Assembly (NCBI GenBank): GCA_048885525.1
Contig: JBHLLP010000012.1
Location: forward strand, 24,785-88,784
Source: Candidatus Hermodarchaeota archaeon
Lineage (GTDB): Archaea; Asgardarchaeota; Lokiarchaeia; Sigyniarchaeales; SOKP01
Direction: 5' to 3'
Length of the DNA stretch: 64,000 bases
Shown piece by piece: positions 2,162-37,209 of the stretch (the stretch's first letter is position 1; each line of letters opens with the position of its first letter). The notes under the pieces were generated by a model that did no database searches, was not told the DNA's origin, and saw nothing but the letters and a program-made list of their open reading frames with translations. Both the position numbers and the translations under genes were made by a program.

Positions 2162-2692
2162 TTAATCATCCTCCTTTTTTTTTGCGAGATCTCCTAATCC
2201 CGTTTCTTCTATTATATATCTAATTTCATCTAGATTAGGGGGTATAAGTTGGGGTAACCCCATCCTACTTCTTCTTCTATCAATATTATCTTTTAAGCCA
2301 CCAGTATAAGGTACTACATATCCATTATCATAGATTGTAACAACAGTTCCTGAATATTCTTTGGGAATTTTTCCCAATTTAACTGCCATGTTACGAAGAA
2401 GAGCAAGAATAAAAGAGTAATCTACATTCTTTGGACATCTTTCAGTGCATCTATGGCATAAAGAACACGTCCAAATTGCTTGACTTGAAAGAACTTCATC
2501 TTTTAAACCTAAAAGACAGGATGCAACAACTCTATGTGGTTGCATATCAACATATTCCGTTACAGTACAGCCTGAGCTACATACACCACATTGGATACAG
2601 TTTAGAAGTGATTTTGCACCAACTTTTTGACTAATTTCATAACGAAAATTATGATCTAAATTTTTAGCATCTTTTTTCATCATTTCTGACAT
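2162..2692 (-). CDS. hdrC: Heterodisulfide reductase subunit C
   Basis: CIQCGVCSSGC and CSLCHRCTERCP 4Fe-4S motifs; lies between hdrA and hdrB. Confidence 0.92.
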   Translation of the reverse strand: MSEMMKKDAKNLDHNFRYEISQKVGAKSLLNCIQCGVCSSGCTVTEYVDMQPHRVVASCLLGLKDEVLSSQAIWTCSLCHRCTERCPKNVDYSFILALLRNMAVKLGKIPKEYSGTVVTIYDNGYVVPYTGGLKDNIDRRRSRMGLPQLIPPNLDEIRYIIEETGLGDLAKKKEDD

Positions 2693-2694
2693 TT

Positions 2695-5600
2695 TTAAGC
2701 AGCCTCCTTAGCTTTTTGTTTTTTTTCAATTTTATCACCTGTTTTAGGAAGTGGTCCTAATTCTTTAATTTGATTAACAAACTCAGTGATAACTTGAGAA
2801 AATCGTTTTCCTTCTGAAGCGCTTATCCATTCAAGATGATATCTATCGGAATTGATGCCAACACTTTCAAGTATATCTTTAAGCTCATTGTAACGTTGTA
2901 ACATGTCATAATTTCCTTCTAAATAGTGACAGTCACCGATATGACATCCTCCAACAAACACACCGTCAGCACCTTCCAAAAATGCTTGTAAAATAAAGCT
3001 TTTGGGTATTCTGCCAGTACACATCACTCGTATTGGTCGAATATTAGTTGGATATTGAAAGCGGCTTACACCACATGTGTCAGCACCAGCATAACTACAC
3101 CAATTACATAAGAAAGTTACGATTCTAGGCCTTTCATCTAAATATTCACCCTTGACAGCTTCACGGATCATAGGATAAATTTGATTATCTGCGAAATGAC
3201 TCATTGTTATCGCTCCTGCGGGACATGCAGCCGAACAATCGCCACAACCTTTACATAAAAGAGGATTAGTTTCTGAAACTAAAACATTTTTATCAAAGTT
3301 AACTCCTATAGCTCCAAAGTTGCAAACTTCTTCACATTTTTGACATGCAATACATAGTGCTGGATCAACAAGCGATACGAGCGGTTCATTTTCCACTTCT
3401 CCTGAGATTAATGGAATTAAAGCATGAGCTGCCGCACCTCTACCTTGTGAGATTGAATCTGCAATTCCTTTGGGACCATGGCAAGTTCCTGCTAGGTATA
3501 TACCATCAGTTGCAAAATCTACTGGTCTTAATTTAATATGAGCTTCTAAGAAAAAACCATTTTGATCTCGAGCACATTTTATCATCTCACCTAATTTTTG
3601 AGTATCATGAGGTATTAAGGGTGTAGATAAAACTACTTTGTCAGTCTCAATAGTAAGGTTAGTTTGAGTTAGAATATCTTTAACCATTACATTCAATTTA
3701 CCATTTTTAACATCAACAGTAGGATATTCGTTAAAACGTATATAGTTTACATTCTCACGTGCTTCCCAGTAAAAAGGTTCTTCATTGGTCCCTACTCGGA
3801 TATCTCTATATAAAACATAAATAGTTGAGTGTGGATATGTTTCTCTTACGTATAAAGCATGTCTGATTGACTCTGAACAACAAATTAATGAACAATATGT
3901 GACCCCATTTCCACCTTCTGGTTGTCTAGAACCCACACAATGGATAAAAACAAGAGTTTCTCCATCTTTTAGTTCATTATTCCTAAGTTTTTCAGATAAT
4001 TCAAGTTGTGTCATAACATTATTATTTTCACCATAATGAAACCATCCAATGGGTTTATACTCATAAGCACCAGTAGCAGCTATAATTGTACCAATATTCA
4101 AACTAATATCTTTCCCTTCAAAATTGTTTGTAACTCTGACTTTAAAATCTCCAATAGATCCTTTCACATCAGTAACTTCAGAATTTAAATAAATAGTAAC
4201 ATTCTTATGTTCATTGAATTCTTTTAACTCTGCTTCTATAAACTCCTTTGAGTCAATTCTATCGAAATTGATTTTATAGATTGAGTTTAATTGCCCTCCT
4301 AGTTTATCATCTTTTTCTATTAAATGCACTTTAAAGCCCTTATTGGCGATTTCCAGAGCTGCACTCATTCCAGCTATCCCTCCACCTATTACCATTGCTT
4401 CGGGAATAACATTACCTTTAATTTTTAACTCTGCTTTTTGTGCTGCTACACGAGCAACACCCATTCTGATAAGGTCCTTTGCTTTATCGGTTGCTTTAGG
4501 GTTATCATTCATATGTACCCATGAATCTAACTCTCTAATACTTACGAAATTAAACAAATATTCATTTAAACCTGCTTCCCTAATGGTCTTTTGGAATAAT
4601 GGTTCGTGAGTTCTTGGTGTACATGCTGCAACTACAACCCTATTTAAGTTTAATTCTTCTATCTTTTCTTTTATAATGTCTTGGGTTAATTGTGAGCAGC
4701 TATACTTATTTTCCATTGAATAAACTACATTTGGAAGTGTTTTTGTATAATCAACTAATTTAGGAACATCCATATATCCTGCAATATTAACACCACAGCG
4801 ACATATGAATACACCAATTCGAGGTTGATCCTTTGGATTTATGGGTTTAAGAGGAGGAAGATCTACTTTCGTTTCTTCGGCACTTAATGGAACAGCATGA
4901 GTTGCTGCTAAAGCTGCTGCTCCACCCGCCTTTGCCACCGAATTTGCAATATCATCAGGAGATTGGCATGAACCAGTCACATATATTCCTTCTCTTGTAG
5001 AACATAGATCTTCTATAGAATCTTTGGTTTTGAAAAACCCGAAATCATTTTGTTCAATTCCTAGTATCTTCGCTAATTGTTCAGTGTCTTTTCGGGGAGT
5101 AACAGCATTTGCAAGGACAACTAGGTCAAATTCACTAACTTCAACCTCACCGGTATCAAGGTTTGCATGCTTAACATATAGATTATGATTTTCTGGATTT
5201 TCACGGATATCTCCAGGAATTCCTCTATAATACAATATATTATACTCCTCTTTAGCTCTTTCAATAAACTCCTCTTGATTTTTTCCTATAACTCTAGTAT
5301 CGTTGAAGAAGATCGTTACATTTGTATCGGGAGCATGCTCTCTCGTAACTACTCCTTCTTTAGTTTGATACATACAACAAAATTTAGAGCAATAAGGACA
5401 TAAATCTATGTTTCTCGAACCTACACAACTAATAAAACCTATATTATACGCATGCTCCTTATCTGAGGGTCTTAATATTTCACCTTCAGTAGGACCAGAT
5501 GCACTTAGTAATCGTTCATACTGCATCGCAGTAATAACATTTGGATATTCCCCATAATGATAACGATCAAGAACACTAGGGTCTAGTTGATCATATCCAG

Positions 5601-30843: not shown

Positions 30844-30901
30844 CAATTTTTACAAACATGGGATAAAATTTATTTAAATTATGATGTAATTATAATAAGT
30901 T

Positions 30902-32344
30902 ATGGACGAACTTCTCACAAAGTTTTTAAAATTGATGTCCGCAAGAATTACAGATTCAGATTTAGAATTAATTAATTTAGGAAAATCTTTAGGATTAGAT
31001 TTAGTATCTTTTGCCGATTTAAGAGCCTCACAAGAAGATATATTTGCTGATGAAGTAAGACAAAAAGCTTTAGAGATAATGGAAAAAAATAAGGATAATG
31101 TTTTAAGTACTTTAGATTCATTTTATGCTGGAAGTATTGATTTTATGGTCTCAGATGAAGCCGAAGAGAAAAAGTTTTTTTTATTAGAAACTAATGGAGG
31201 ATCTCATCGAGGACTTTCAATAATTACTGAAAAACAACAAATTCTTCTATATGATGGATATTTAGAAGCTATTAAACAAGCAATTAAAAGAAAAGAGAAT
31301 ACTATAGATAATGTATTTGTAATAATTGGAGTACCAATTAACGATGGATTAATTCATGAAAAAGTTATAATGATTGAATATTTCAGAAAAACACTTAAAG
31401 CTAATGGGTATTCTGTAAAAATTTTTAATACGGATAATTACAATAAGGACTTTAAAGCTGAAATCATTGTTTTAATAGCTGATTATCAGCAACTATCCTC
31501 ATCTCTTTCATTTTCTAATAATTGGATTAAATATAAAGGAGAGAACGTAGGAGTATTAATAGGAGATGGTATTACAAGACGTTTTAAGAATAAAAAATTT
31601 TCAAAATTAGTGAAAAAAGAGTTTCGAGAAATAAAATCAATTTTAGTTAACCCTATATTTCATATAACAGATGATAAATCTCTAACATATTTAGCAAGCT
31701 ATTTTAGTAAAGATCTCCTCAAAAAATATAATTTAAAATATCTTTTATTCACAAAAGCTTTTAATGAAAAGGATTTGATCGATAAATTAAAATATCTTAT
31801 TAAGGAATATAAAAAATCTTTTATTATTAAACCTAGTGGGGGTTCTGGAGGAGCTGGCGTCATTCCCGTTTCTAAGGATGAAGATCCTCTTAATATTAAA
31901 AATATTGTTGAAGAAAGTAAAAAGGAATTTTTTGCTAAGTTCATGAAGTCGCGCGATCCTTTTCCATATACGATTCAAGAAATGGCCGATTTCTCATTAA
32001 TAGAGTGGCAGGAAGGGAAACACACATTTGATTTACGGATTTATTTAGCTCAAAGAGATGGTAAAGTTATCCCAATTGGAGGGTTAGCTAGAATTGCCCG
32101 AGAAGAATTTATTCATAAAAAAAGACTGAATAAGCAAGAATTTGTAGTCAATCTATCTGGCTACAATGGTCAAATTGAAGTTAAACGTGGAATAGGTTTC
32201 TCGGAAAAAAACTGTAAACTATTAAACTTAACAAAAGATGATTTTACAAATATGTTTTGCATAGGTTGTGTTTTATTTTCGGGAATGGTTAAAAATTATC
32301 ATAAAATCATCAATTTTACAAATTGGGAAGAAATATTCGATTGA
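30902..32344 (+). CDS. Circularly permuted ATP-grasp amidoligase (type 2-like)
   Basis: N-terminal GSIDFM...LLETN; C-terminal FIIKPSGGSGGAGV, YTIQE, FDLRIY, GGLARIA, VVNLS. Confidence 0.8.
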   Translation: MDELLTKFLKLMSARITDSDLELINLGKSLGLDLVSFADLRASQEDIFADEVRQKALEIMEKNKDNVLSTLDSFYAGSIDFMVSDEAEEKKFFLLETNGGSHRGLSIITEKQQILLYDGYLEAIKQAIKRKENTIDNVFVIIGVPINDGLIHEKVIMIEYFRKTLKANGYSVKIFNTDNYNKDFKAEIIVLIADYQQLSSSLSFSNNWIKYKGENVGVLIGDGITRRFKNKKFSKLVKKEFREIKSILVNPIFHITDDKSLTYLASYFSKDLLKKYNLKYLLFTKAFNEKDLIDKLKYLIKEYKKSFIIKPSGGSGGAGVIPVSKDEDPLNIKNIVEESKKEFFAKFMKSRDPFPYTIQEMADFSLIEWQEGKHTFDLRIYLAQRDGKVIPIGGLARIAREEFIHKKRLNKQEFVVNLSGYNGQIEVKRGIGFSEKNCKLLNLTKDDFTNMFCIGCVLFSGMVKNYHKIINFTNWEEIFD

Positions 32345-32345
32345 G

Positions 32346-33506
32346 ATGAATGCTGAAACCCTAAAATCATTATTAGATATTTCTAAACGTTACAATTTAT
32401 ATACAAAGATTCTGAAAGAATTAGATATTGTAAGAAATTTAGAATATACCAGCTATCGAATTTATAATACTTCTGAAGGCATTATTCCTCTAATAAAAAT
32501 TGCTAAAAATTCCAATTTTGATGAATTAAAACATATTAAAATCTTTATTGGTGCACAGCAAAATGAATATAATGGTTTATTTAGTATCCTGAAATTTTTT
32601 AAATTAATACAAGATAATAAAATTCAAATCAATAAATTAATCAGAGAAGATCAAGTTCTTTTCTTTTTGCCATTATTAAATCCTTATGGGTTTTTGAATC
32701 CTAGTAAAAATAATAAATCTGGTTATTATTTAAAAAATGGTTCAAATCTTAATAGATTTTGGGTTAGAGCTTTCGTCCCTGAATATAAAAATGGGATTAT
32801 AGATTTAGATACAATTAAAACACCCGAACAAGTTATTATTGTGAAAGAATTACTTCAAAAATATTGGGATAACGAAGATATTCATATATACATACTCGAT
32901 TTCCATGAGACTTCTTTATTGAATAGATTTCCAGTTGAATTAAGTACAAATCTAAATCCCTTTTATAAATTTGATCATTGGTTAAAAGAGGGTATTATAC
33001 TAAATATTATTAAGCTATACGATATCCCTTATTATCGAAAACCTTTATTCTTTAAATGTAATCCTTCCGCCGATCACACGCATCTAAATTTAACTTATAA
33101 ACAAATTGAGACCGTTCATGAAAAACTTTATGACTATATATCAAGGAATTTGGGGATGGGCAAATTACCTTTCTATTTTTGCTACAGCGACAAGAGTAGA
33201 GATTTCTGTCTAAAACTTGCAAATAAAGTTTATAATAAACTGAAAGACAAATTATGGGAAACTTACTTTCCTGCTTTTGATCATAGTTTTAAAAATCATG
33301 GTTGTTTTGTAAGAATGAGTGATGCGACATCTCGAGCTAGAGTTTATAGCATGGAATTAGAATCTCAAAAACATTTCTTCAACATCTTTGAAGAAATAAA
33401 AAAATTAAAATCAGTTCCTAATTACATTGAAAATAAACTTGATCTCATTAATGTGAGTATTGAATTAGCACTTGAGACTATAAAGGAGATGATAGAATTA
33501 TTTTAA
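32346..33506 (+). CDS. M14 zinc carboxypeptidase/AstE-AspA-like protein
   Basis: GAQQNE (HxxE position), PLLNPYG, NLNR, LDFHE, MELE. ATG 1 nt after the ATP-grasp stop is preferred over track start 32268. Confidence 0.72.
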   Translation: MNAETLKSLLDISKRYNLYTKILKELDIVRNLEYTSYRIYNTSEGIIPLIKIAKNSNFDELKHIKIFIGAQQNEYNGLFSILKFFKLIQDNKIQINKLIREDQVLFFLPLLNPYGFLNPSKNNKSGYYLKNGSNLNRFWVRAFVPEYKNGIIDLDTIKTPEQVIIVKELLQKYWDNEDIHIYILDFHETSLLNRFPVELSTNLNPFYKFDHWLKEGIILNIIKLYDIPYYRKPLFFKCNPSADHTHLNLTYKQIETVHEKLYDYISRNLGMGKLPFYFCYSDKSRDFCLKLANKVYNKLKDKLWETYFPAFDHSFKNHGCFVRMSDATSRARVYSMELESQKHFFNIFEEIKKLKSVPNYIENKLDLINVSIELALETIKEMIELF

Positions 33507-34642: not shown

Positions 34643-34963
34643 TTATTTTTTAGCTTTATCTGGAGGACATCCGAAATCATCCCTTACTTTACAATTTCTT
34701 TTGCTAGAACTGCCTGGGCATGGAGCACATTTAACTTTTCGCATAAGAGCTTCAACTTCATCTATCTCATAACCAAAAGATTCCTCCTCTGTCTCATCTA
34801 CTAGCATATCATCCTTAATTTTACTCAGATCATAATCTATATCTTCTTCTAGATTATCTTTCCAATCTTCCAAATCTAAAATCTCATCCCCATCTTCATC
34901 AATTTTTCCTGATGGAAGTTCTAAATCTTCATCCTCAACAGGAGCACTCTTTTTTTTAGCCAT
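34643..34963 (-). CDS. Small, highly acidic protein with C-terminal Cx2Cx8Cx7C motif
   Basis: D/E-rich N-terminal two-thirds; KCAPCPGSSSKRNCKVRDDFGCPP. ATG 34963 (track start 34972). Confidence 0.75.
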   Translation of the reverse strand: MAKKKSAPVEDEDLELPSGKIDEDGDEILDLEDWKDNLEEDIDYDLSKIKDDMLVDETEEESFGYEIDEVEALMRKVKCAPCPGSSSKRNCKVRDDFGCPPDKAKK

Positions 34964-35118
34964 GTTATTCACATATATTAAAAATATATTTTTACAATTG
35001 AATTTTTTTTATATATAATATTTGCTAAAATTTAATTTTATTAGTTTTAAGTATGGTAAATTCAAAAACACCATGACTATCTAATCGTATATAATAAAAA
35101 ATTAATAGAAGAAGTGTC

Positions 35119-37209
35119 CTAGGATACATCTTTAATATAGATCTGATTAATTTGATCCAAGAGAGGTTCATTCTTGTATATAATGTTGAATATGTTCTTA
35201 ATTTCATCTAAAGTAGGCTCCAGCTCTTCTATTAAGTACGTTTCATAATTATCAATCTTATATCGCGGTATGAGGTACTTAAATTGAATGTTTTTCAGTT
35301 CTATTTTCGAGTATAAGAATTCTCTTATAAAACTGAAATCAATATTAGATTCTAAATATAACTCATCTAAATATATTAGTTTTACTAAGGAATTACATAA
35401 TTTTATAAAAAATCGTAATAATCTTTTAAGTTCCAGTTGATATTTTTGATTTAGAAATTTTAGATCTAGAGTTCTATAGATAAATTTTGAACTTAGATCA
35501 TAATGCAATTGAGATAAAATTTGAATAATTTTTCCACAATTGGATAATGATAAAGGAAGATTTTTTGGTATTGGCAATCTTCTTATAAAACTTCCATTGA
35601 ATCTTAAATAGCCACCGGCCATGTGAAGAGAACTAAATAATGTTTTAAATACAGTATCTAATAGTGTTGAGTTCAATAATGCTAAGAGACAATATAACTG
35701 CTGAGTATTTATCGAAGGGATCCTCATTAAATATAAACCAGTTATATTAGCAAAGATTCCAGGGTCATACACACAGGTTAATTCTTTGGCAATTTCTCTA
35801 AAAATAATTTTTTCATTTTTTAGGTCCTGCCAAATAGGATTAAAAGTAGGATTATAATTAAAATAACAGATTTCAAGATCTCTCTTAGCTATCTTTATCC
35901 TTTTATTAAATTTAAGATAATATTTGTCGACATTTCCTGTCCCAATTAATAGTAAATCAAGATCAGATTGGGGTTCATCGCTGATATTATCAAAATATTT
36001 GCCATATTTTAAAAAACCAAAAGGGCGATATATAATTTTCAAATCTTTGAAAGTTTCAGATAACGTTTTAAAGTTTCTAAACAAGTATGAAATTATGTTA
36101 ATATTTCCTGAGATCGGTATTACTTTTGACGGGAATATATTGATTAGATTTTGATTGAATTTTATTATCTTTATACTATTATTTTCATTTAACTCATTTA
36201 GGTTATTAAAAGCTTTAACATTCACCTCATGTTCCTTTTTTTGCTTAACCTTTTTTAGCGATAAAATAATTGGATATGTAGCTACATTTTGAAATATAGA
36301 TATCGACGATATATTTATGATTTCTTTAATTTCTGATTTATTTAATATTAACTCTCTAATTTTGATACCATAATCAGCAGATAAGAATTTATTAGGTAAA
36401 ATGAATGAAAGATATCCATTACTTTCTAATAATTCTAACGCTCTCTCAATAAAGAGGATTGAAAGATCAAATAAACGATAGGCTGTTTTATATCTTTTAG
36501 TTAAATTGTTCTTGAATTCAATTGGTTTTATCTTTTTATTTTCTACATAAGGAGGATTTCCAATTATTATATCGAATTTATCAGAATTAAACTCTAAAAG
36601 AAAATCTAAATTAAAAAGATTAAAACTTAGATTTAAGAGCTCAATGATTTGGTTAAAATTTGTGATTTTTATGTTTTTAAAATTATCATTTTGAAATGTA
36701 AAGTTATTGTTATCTGTTATTAAAAGCCATTTAATTAATCGCAGTTTTGAGATAAGAATACCTGATTTTTCAATTTCAATTCCATACAGATTTTTTTCAA
36801 TTATTAATTTCTTTATATCAAAATCAGATAATTTTGGCTCTAACATTCTATAAATATAATACAATTTTTCAGCTATAGATACTAAAAATCTCCCAGAGCC
36901 ACAAGAAGGGTCTAGAATCCTTATATTTTTAATTATTTTAATTAAATTCTCTTTAGTTTTTAGATTTTTAATTAGTGTATGAATAACTTCTTCTAAATCC
37001 GATCCATTTTTAATTTCTTTATTAAAAGAAACAAATTTTTCGAAATAGATTCTAAAGATCTTAGTTACTATATAATCTACAACTTGGTTCGGTGTATAGA
37101 TTATTCCAAGATTCCGACTCTTATCCTTTTCGAGAAATTTTTCATTTTCAAATCTCTCAATTCGTTTCTCAATATTATTTAATAATTTTTTAACTACTGA
37201 TCCTTCCAT
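35119..37209 (-). CDS. N6-adenine DNA methyltransferase (gamma class, TaqI/Eco57I-like) with target-recognition domain
   Basis: YTP, LDPSCGSGRFL, YGIEI, FDIIIGNPPY, GGYLRF. Confidence 0.88.
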   Translation of the reverse strand: MEGSVVKKLLNNIEKRIERFENEKFLEKDKSRNLGIIYTPNQVVDYIVTKIFRIYFEKFVSFNKEIKNGSDLEEVIHTLIKNLKTKENLIKIIKNIRILDPSCGSGRFLVSIAEKLYYIYRMLEPKLSDFDIKKLIIEKNLYGIEIEKSGILISKLRLIKWLLITDNNNFTFQNDNFKNIKITNFNQIIELLNLSFNLFNLDFLLEFNSDKFDIIIGNPPYVENKKIKPIEFKNNLTKRYKTAYRLFDLSILFIERALELLESNGYLSFILPNKFLSADYGIKIRELILNKSEIKEIINISSISIFQNVATYPIILSLKKVKQKKEHEVNVKAFNNLNELNENNSIKIIKFNQNLINIFPSKVIPISGNINIISYLFRNFKTLSETFKDLKIIYRPFGFLKYGKYFDNISDEPQSDLDLLLIGTGNVDKYYLKFNKRIKIAKRDLEICYFNYNPTFNPIWQDLKNEKIIFREIAKELTCVYDPGIFANITGLYLMRIPSINTQQLYCLLALLNSTLLDTVFKTLFSSLHMAGGYLRFNGSFIRRLPIPKNLPLSLSNCGKIIQILSQLHYDLSSKFIYRTLDLKFLNQKYQLELKRLLRFFIKLCNSLVKLIYLDELYLESNIDFSFIREFLYSKIELKNIQFKYLIPRYKIDNYETYLIEELEPTLDEIKNIFNIIYKNEPLLDQINQIYIKDVS

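Follow-up and report, generated by a model that had tools for sequence, protein, structure and literature searches.

Why would an archaeal genome encode, one nucleotide apart, an enzyme expected to make amide bonds and another expected to break them? The two genes in question occupy positions 30,902 to 33,506 of a 64,000-nucleotide stretch of Candidatus Hermodarchaeota DNA (contig JBHLLP010000012.1; the whole stretch is called the window here). A first-pass annotation, made from the letters alone, had read them as a circularly permuted ATP-grasp ligase and an M14-type peptidase; they are named LIG and PEP in this work. Their families, predicted structures and genomic surroundings led us to the view, held with a probability of roughly 0.55, that LIG and PEP form a functional maker/breaker pair for one kind of amide bond, more probably in a small molecule than in a protein. 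The strongest argument for a functional pair is that distant relatives of LIG are linked to an M14-clan hydrolase in rearranged gene orders. The features of the locus are as follows.

30866..30901 (+): possible archaeal promoter, AT-rich, with the TATA-like TTTATTTAAAT about 23-33 nt before the LIG ATG (read from the sequence)
30902..32344 (+): LIG, circularly permuted ATP-grasp carboxylate-amine ligase, 480 aa (fold and sequence)
31130..31195 (+): LIG residues 77-98, GSIDFM...LLETN, permuted Mg/ATP-binding strands with D80, E96 and N98 (near-invariance, HMMER alignment)
31823..31858 (+): LIG residues 308-319, IIKPSGGSGGAG, ATP-binding Lys and glycine-rich loop (K310 and G319 conserved)
32342..32348 (+): LIG/PEP junction, TGA-g-ATG, with a 1-nt spacer (sequence)
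32346..33506 (+): PEP, M14-clan zinc carboxypeptidase-like hydrolase, 386 aa (AlphaFold2 model, structure comparison, hhalign)
32559..32561 (+): PEP codon 72, CAA, giving Gln at the aligned zinc-ligand His of the HGNE motif (alignment)
32904..32906 (+): PEP His187 (DFHET), putative second zinc histidine by motif order (invariant in the PEP alignment)
33354..33356 (+): PEP Glu337 (SMELE), likely general base by M14 motif order (invariant in the PEP alignment)

The ligase and the hydrolase

The layout reported in the first-pass annotation, two genes on the + strand separated by the single nucleotide of TGA-G-ATG, was recovered, and every motif quoted there was present in the order given. In LIG these are GSIDFM...LLETN (77-98), IIKPSGGSGGAG (308-319), TIQEM (357-361), FDLR (376-379), GGLAR (393-397) and VVN (415-417); in PEP they are NPYG (112-115), NLNR (134-137), DFHE (185-188) and ELE (337-339). 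Homologues of 479-482 aa share a conserved N-terminal region with LIG, which backs its start at 30902; Met12 is the start chosen by some gene callers.

LIG belongs to a small and distinct family. A HMMER search of 1.84 billion cluster representatives returned 70 relatives at E<=1e-3, and D80, E96 and N98 were nearly invariant across 35 aligned full-length members, which are 17-64% identical. Together with K310, G314-G319, E360 and R379 they make up the ATP-grasp set conserved in the family, which HMMER aligned with the equivalent elements of pyruvate carboxylase, MCC, biotin carboxylase and TTLL7. Residues Q44, E153, D222, N250, K259 and Y263 are conserved in this family in particular and lie in motifs, GDGxxRR and TDDK among them, which set LIG apart from eukaryotic glutathione synthetase. 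The order of the blocks is permuted. The Lys/Gly-loop block (profile positions 276-331) matched residues 149-201 of the pyruvate carboxylase chain and aligned to the same loop in TTLL7 and biotin carboxylase, and positions 38-88 (GSvDFmv...ilEtN) matched chain residues 255-294; that is, the N-terminal D..E.N block of LIG corresponds to a segment lying C-terminal of the Lys/Gly-loop in the non-permuted pyruvate carboxylase, MCC and TTL.

The AlphaFold2 (AF2) model of LIG (pLDDT 92, pTM 0.92) agreed with this order. The top Foldseek matches were eukaryotic glutathione and homoglutathione synthetases (E 1e-14 to 1e-11), and many ATP-grasp structures were matched at Z 8-15. In the VIA comparison the best was 3k1t, of the PF08886 'GshA' family (Z 15.2 over 331 residues), followed by YjfC (14.4), eukaryotic glutathione synthetase, eu-GS (13-14), and GspS (12.7-13.0). 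Permuted structures aligned to LIG from residue 17-57 up to about 440-470, whereas the non-permuted ArgX/LysX, Ddl, TTL/TTLL, RimK and GshB aligned only from about residue 125-139 (Z 8-13). LIG is therefore a circularly permuted ATP-grasp by both sequence and fold, as the first-pass annotation had proposed from motif order. With eukaryotic glutathione and homoglutathione synthetases it shares the circular permutation and the three-domain layout; no membership of a common sequence family was found.

LIG passed no Pfam or NCBIfam cut-off. Sub-threshold matches were confined to residues ~270-400 and comprised YheCD (1.5e-5), ATPgrasp_ST, GARS_A, the prokaryotic GSH-S_ATP (0.003, in the loop region) and CP_ATPgrasp_2 (PF14403, 0.006). 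The last shares the permutation with LIG (structure 3n6x) but scored 16 bits against a cut-off of 32; its match covers the final 95 model positions, as expected given the same permutation, and PF14403 gave weak matches in two of the 35 family members. CP_ATPgrasp_2 genes are accompanied by alpha-E and transglutaminase genes. Neither was found among the conserved neighbours of LIG, be it in the window, in 80 related Loki loci or in distant loci, which bears out the absence noted earlier for the window. LIG lies outside every characterised family, including PF14403, the eukaryotic glutathione synthetases and TTL, again in line with what had been anticipated.

For the second gene, the reading as M14/AstE stood with regard to the clan and the motifs, which are kept in the family, but the window copy passed no Pfam cut-off: it matched no Pfam model, PF00246 included. 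Peptidase_M14 was matched by five of 24 PEP relatives (best E 6e-6) and AstE_AspA_cat, weakly, by four of the 24 (6.7e-4); the PEP profile found nothing among PDB sequences at E<=10. The AF2 model (pLDDT 88, pTM 0.90) has an M14 carboxypeptidase fold. It aligned in VIA with CPA, CPB, CPT, CPD and bacterial and human cytosolic carboxypeptidases (CCPs) at Z 17.7-19.4 over ~240-260 residues (root-mean-square deviation 3.5-3.8 for CPA, CPB, CPT and CCPs), and with AstE, AspA, DoeB, MpaA and CphZ at Z 11.7-14.9. The model opens with helices at residues 3-31, after which the catalytic sheet begins, and in its alignments with 4a37, 3l2n and 4b6z the first matched chain residue is ~78-81, past the N-domain of those structures; the CCP-type N-terminal beta-sandwich is absent from it.

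The PEP family keeps QH-NE(Y/F)NG, NP(Y/F)GF, NLNR, DFHETS and (S/T)MELE, a putative zinc and catalytic set made up of H72-x-E74 (one residue shorter than HxxE), H187, E337 and the N136-R137 clamp. In the window copy the first zinc motif reads QQNE in place of the family's QH-NE, a feature overlooked in the first-pass annotation. Residue 72 is His in 118 of 120 homologues by motif scan (one lacks a motif match) and Gln in the window copy alone, and this H72Q change is its single deviation across 79 columns conserved at >=97%. Three contigs carry the identical protein, with Q72, which makes an error of sequencing unlikely. To judge from the alignment, H72Q probably weakens zinc binding, and the window PEP is probably weak or inactive. 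Relaxed selection on it was not seen, the ratio dN(PEP)/dN(LIG) being 1.41 compared with 1.38 in other pairs. Both genes are under purifying selection, with omega ~0.1-0.2, values that are rough because dS is near saturation.

Linkage of the two genes and loss of PEP

In a survey of 301 genomes of the phylum, full-length LIG was found in 63 of the 68 genomes of the window's GTDB family (within Lokiarchaeia) and in one of seven from the sister family; the remaining families gave no full-length LIG, just weak partial ATP-grasp matches. PEP followed the same pattern (44/68 and 1/7, and no other family). All full-length PEP copies lay directly downstream of LIG and none elsewhere in any genome searched. 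Of 110 related loci, 73 have PEP immediately after LIG and in the same orientation, and in all 73 the reading frames, taken from stop to stop, almost touch or overlap; in at least eight metagenome-assembled genomes (MAGs) the two carry neighbouring NCBI locus tags. Linkage in other genomes, which the first-pass annotation had treated as decisive for its proposal, was thus borne out. One apparent absence of LIG, in genome G071, proved to be a contig end and not a loss. Three genomes of the window's family that are 98-99% complete (G099, G249 and G264) lack both the ligase and the RtcB-like gene introduced below; all three are members of one genus, and one event may account for them.

The 80 closest loci from named MAGs, all Promethearchaeota, share a syntenic block of 11 genes, GFO-Mut7C-FmdE-ABH-Clp1-LIG-[PEP]-ABH-acidic protein-methylase (MTase)-PPP. 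According to their record titles, ten of these MAGs (L036, L044, L047, L050, L058, L065, L070, L072, L075 and L076) are Thor-, Hod-, Hermod- or Odinarchaeota. These labels from the submitters look unreliable, since the ten ligase loci nest among those of Promethearchaeota (Loki) and share their synteny. PEP was present in 50 of the 80 loci. In the other 30, the gap between LIG and the next gene was 3-387 bp, and seven loci (L026, L019, L023, L009, L033, L034 and L042) retained PEP relics directly downstream of the ligase. These relics cover residues 1-84, 1-54, 1-30 or 329-386 and carry in-frame stops or a frameshift; they record repeated, recent decay of PEP in the window's own genus. On the ligase tree, the presence of PEP requires at least eight changes, seven of them forced by well-supported branches. 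Those at relic sites are losses; for the others the tree alone does not separate loss from gain. The LIG catalytic motifs were intact in all 29 PEP-less loci. PEP, which we judge to have been lost at least seven times, is thus a dispensable accessory that LIG does not need, and H72Q in the window may be an early step of the same decay, given the repeated losses within the genus. As for the writer/eraser idea, the notion of a functional pair is supported, but its eraser can be spared, and in the window it lacks the aligned zinc histidine.

Because synteny in the Loki family extends over the whole block, the adjacency of LIG and PEP there, taken alone, says little about coupling. More telling were distant relatives. 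When metagenomes were scanned with ligases from outside the Loki group (30-50% identical to one another, ~30% to the window LIG), 42 loci were obtained in which two neighbour families recur in varying orders and orientations. The first consists of hydrolases of the AstE/AspA type (PF24827, E 1e-17 to 1e-29, motif aGQHGNEWNG) and the second is a family of ~400 aa with no Pfam or NCBIfam match. Ten of the loci, two of them near-duplicates, extend 1.3 kb or more to either side of the ligase; the hydrolase was present in all ten and the ~400-aa gene in nine. This linkage in rearranged loci indicates that the coupling of ligase and hydrolase is functional and old, not merely inherited synteny. In three GC-rich metagenome loci (L122, L123 and L139) the ligase is duplicated, in tandem or inverted.

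The ligase tree placed the Loki clade as sister to a small group consisting of G282 (from the sister family), L137 (a GC-poor metagenome locus with a PEP-like neighbour) and a protein from a Lokiarchaeota MAG, with a Hodarchaeales protein next beyond. The Loki, sister and Hodarchaeales ligases are nested among ligases with AstE-like and ~400-aa partners. In some related loci the flanking genes are of a kind typical of bacteria (alanine racemase, SpoIID). Since the Loki pair is nested among those relatives, the earlier description of the module as archaeal did not hold.

The partner of the distant ligases is a clear member of the AstE/AspA/DoeB group, and PEP shares with it the QH(G)NE(W/Y)NG, NP, NR and H motifs. 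hhalign paired GAQH-NEYNG of PEP with aGQHGNEWNG of the AstE-like partner (Prob 92%, E 5e-7), which puts H72 at the position of the first His in the HGNE zinc motif. PEP differs in having HxE rather than HxxE and, by motif positions, a stretch from the second His to the catalytic Glu that is longer by ~95 residues. Descent of PEP from the AstE-like partner, as against replacement of that partner by another member of the clan, is favoured by these sequence similarities, whereas the predicted structure puts PEP nearer to classical M14 enzymes than to the AstE-like type.

Two other members of the Loki block deserve mention. One is a small protein (window 34643-34972, -), strongly acidic but with a basic, Cys-rich tail, for which no Pfam match was found and which occupies the same position in 70 of the 80 related loci. 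An Eco57I-type methylase without a nuclease partner (window 35119-37209, -) is a block member in 62/80. Among the distant loci, L129 (7170-9704) and L131 have a fused Eco57I-methylase/BsuBI-PstI nuclease gene near the module of ligase, hydrolase and ~400-aa gene.

Candidate reactions and the third partner

If LIG and PEP are indeed maker and breaker of one bond, superfamily chemistry suggests how they would work. LIG would phosphorylate a substrate carboxylate with ATP and Mg at a site formed by K310, the Gly loop 314-319, E360 and R379, with D80, E96 and N98 supplied from the N-terminus, and would then join to it an amine, for which the alpha-amino group of an amino acid in free form is the likeliest candidate. 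In PEP, the Asn136-Arg137 clamp would hold the free alpha-carboxylate of the terminal residue, and zinc (bound by H72, E74 and H187) together with Glu337 would cut the bond ahead of that residue; PEP would in this way turn over, edit or recycle the LIG product. The substrate would more likely be a small peptide-like or N-acyl-amino-acid metabolite than a protein.

Known enzymes of both kinds point in this direction. Tripeptides are made by eu-GS/hGS and peptide-polyamine conjugates by GspS/TryS, and AstE, AspA and DoeB are N-acyl-amino-acid amidohydrolases. Peptide-polyamine ligation is also catalysed by YgiC/YjfC, and Cp1B ligates a dicarboxylic acid to an L-amino acid (PMC12568646). The characterised permuted ATP-grasps matched by LIG (eu-GS/hGS, GspS/TryS, YgiC/YjfC and Cp1B) are all small-molecule enzymes. 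A small molecule was considered likelier than a protein tag because the closer parallels lie there, in glutathionylspermidine synthetase/amidase and in N-acyl-amino-acid synthesis opposed by AstE/AspA hydrolysis.

The permuted folds of GspSA, YgiC/YjfC and trypanothione synthetase aligned over nearly the whole of LIG (Z 12.7-14.4), and GspSA likewise combines an amide ligase with a hydrolase that undoes its product. In GspSA, however, the hydrolase is a fused CHAP-type amidase, while here it is a separate M14 enzyme; identity to LIG is 11-13% with no HMM match, and the polyamine substrate is a feature of GspSA. Cp1B, an hGS-like ATP-grasp of E-64 biosynthesis (9cjn; PMC12568646), is a weaker match (Z 10.6), and its type of product, an N-acyl amino acid, is what AstE/AspA-type hydrolases cleave; it differs in being fungal, in belonging to a secondary-metabolite cluster and in having no hydrolase partner.

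Several observations weigh against a metabolite maker/breaker pair. PEP is absent from about one third of ligase-bearing genomes, and adjacency within the Loki family is, on its own, weak evidence for coupling. The RtcB-like third partner is not explained by a simple metabolite cycle. Further, PEP is structurally nearer to true carboxypeptidases, CCPs included (Z 17.7-18.7), than to AstE/AspA (Z 11.7-14.0), which leaves room for the C-terminus of a peptide or protein as substrate.

This last point bears on the alternative that fares best, although we consider it unlikely: that LIG extends a protein or ribosomal peptide by one or more amino acids, at its C-terminus or on an acidic side chain, and that PEP trims them off, in the manner of TTL/TTLL with CCP, or of RimK. 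The parallel lies in the idea of adding and trimming, in the ATP-binding loops and in the M14 fold. TTLL7 was the top sequence-level PDB match of the LIG profile (E 1.8e-4), the Pfam TTL model (PF03133) was matched by one of 35 LIG family members (2.7e-5), and the PEP model resembles cytosolic carboxypeptidases (4a37, Z 18.7; CCP5, Z 17.7) no less than it does any other M14 enzyme. However, the similarity to TTL is limited to the ATP-binding loops; TTL/TTLL enzymes are not permuted and aligned only to LIG residues ~136-468, the window LIG has no PF03133 match, and the fold and topology of LIG fit the small-molecule permuted class. PEP has a helical start in place of the CCP N-domain, the partners in distant relatives are of AstE/AspA type, and no conserved candidate substrate gene adjoins the pair across the distant loci. 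The analogy to TTLL and CCP drawn in the first-pass annotation therefore fails at the level of family membership.

The ~400-aa third partner opens a different direction. Its invariant motifs (PD...GYG, PNxCGM, NHF, H...E, HQG, PHGGGY and YRG) are ones that we take to resemble the metal-site and nucleophile motifs of RtcB, and the other signals of RtcB likeness are consistent but weak. When the window's genome was searched with the ~400-aa profile, the match other than the strong family member was canonical RtcB alone (E 0.003). RtcB from T. thermophilus (2epg) was one of two PDB matches (E 1.7), hhalign against RtcB gave E 2e-4 and 7e-4 (Prob 26-44%), and 25 of 30 ESM-Atlas feature neighbours fell in the RtcB set. 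The strong member in the window's genome lies on another contig, beside MetRS (L155:2274-3518 (-), corresponding to G000:C63, where the copy spans 2280-3482 on the minus strand), and is unlinked to LIG. The family was detected in 141 of the 301 Asgard genomes, often beside an HD-domain gene; it is widespread, with members in Asgard, Bathyarchaeota, DPANN, Chloroflexota and Spirochaetales records (L111-L152, L155 and L156-L173).

Gene order around this partner was informative in a few loci. In the sister family (L156:1013-6703, which is G282; also L162 and L163), the RtcB-like gene is followed by those for a pyruvoyl arginine decarboxylase and deoxyhypusine synthase, and in G282 the order on one strand continues with LIG and a diverged PEP. 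A link to polyamines or hypusine was considered on this basis and is probably incidental, the first three genes occurring together without the ligase in G083 and G210. In L121:3081-4637 and L117:1760-3902, a beta-CASP/RMMBL RNase-like gene and two genes for metallo-beta-lactamase-fold proteins adjoin the ligase-hydrolase pair. In the window and in 72 of the 80 Loki loci, a Clp1-type polynucleotide kinase gene lies directly upstream of LIG.

One tentative proposal, in our estimation rather improbable, is that the pair is a Lokiarchaeial remnant of an old three-gene module (RtcB-like protein, permuted ATP-grasp and M14-clan hydrolase) of bacteria and archaea that recurs beside HD, beta-CASP and Clp1 genes and would couple reversible conjugation of amino acids or peptides to RNA repair or processing. 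If true, amino-acid conjugation would be tied to RNA repair or processing, a link without known precedent.

A role of the two enzymes in RNA-end repair or processing itself, in which they would work with the RtcB-like enzyme, for example by reversible conjugation of an amino acid to a repair component, a cofactor or an RNA end, appears doubtful. The RtcB-like gene lies by the ligase in nine of ten well-flanked distant loci and upstream on the same strand in G282. Added to this are the recurrence of the HD-domain gene beside the RtcB-like family, the beta-CASP/RMMBL gene adjoining the ligase in L121, the Clp1-type kinase in the window and the Loki loci, and the joint absence of ligase and RtcB-like gene from three near-complete genomes of the family. 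Against this stand the weak assignment to RtcB (by hhalign, PDB HMMER and ESM features alike), a distribution of the RtcB-like family far wider than that of the ligase, the lack of linkage in the window's genome, and the position of Clp1 inside a fully syntenic block. To our knowledge, there is also no case of chemistry that links such a ligase and hydrolase to RNA-end enzymes.

That the two genes have no functional coupling, and are neighbours in unrelated pathways through inherited synteny, seems quite improbable. The synteny of the entire block from GFO to PPP in the Loki family, and the deletion of PEP from loci where the ligase stays, are what this would predict, but the frames nearly touch or overlap wherever both genes occur, PEP is never found away from the ligase, and in distant relatives, where the gene order is rearranged, the ligase still has a hydrolase of the M14 clan nearby.

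Finally, a glutathione synthetase or other enzyme of gamma-glutamyl-cysteine-type thiols, which the Foldseek ranking of eukaryotic (homo)glutathione synthetases (E 1e-14 to 1e-11) and the title of 3k1t (putative gamma-glutamylcysteine synthetase, Z 15.2) might suggest, was rejected as very unlikely, because LIG is 10-14% identical to these structures, no Pfam model for eukaryotic GSH synthetase was among the matches listed at E<=1, and the window's 99.3%-complete genome has no homologue of GCS2 (PF04107) or Glu_cys_ligase (PF04262), models to which control genomes respond, and so no source of gamma-Glu-Cys.

Meaning for the family and for Lokiarchaeia

Glutathione, trypanothione and peptide-polyamine conjugates are products of permuted ATP-grasp ligases, a class in which we know of few families with a known product. 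NCBIfam holds no family for the ligase or for the ~400-aa partner, and PADLOC gave no match for the ligase, peptidase, RtcB-like, AstE-like, HD or Clp1 proteins. No curated family or paper describing the pair or the three-gene module was found, nor any paper combining 'circularly permuted ATP-grasp' with carboxypeptidase, although a mention in the amidoligase survey of Iyer et al. 2009 is not excluded. LIG resembles eukaryotic glutathione synthetase in fold alone, and no special relation to eukaryotes was found.

The results define a further permuted ATP-grasp family, without a Pfam or NCBIfam name, that has a consistent zinc-hydrolase partner and a consistent third partner. Should the link to the RtcB-like family be real, new chemistry would be expected where amino-acid ligation borders RNA repair. 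In Lokiarchaeia the system is seen in mid-decay: the hydrolase has been lost repeatedly, and in the window's genome it bears one active-site change, while the ligase is kept. It amounts to an experiment of nature on which member of a maker/breaker pair is expendable.

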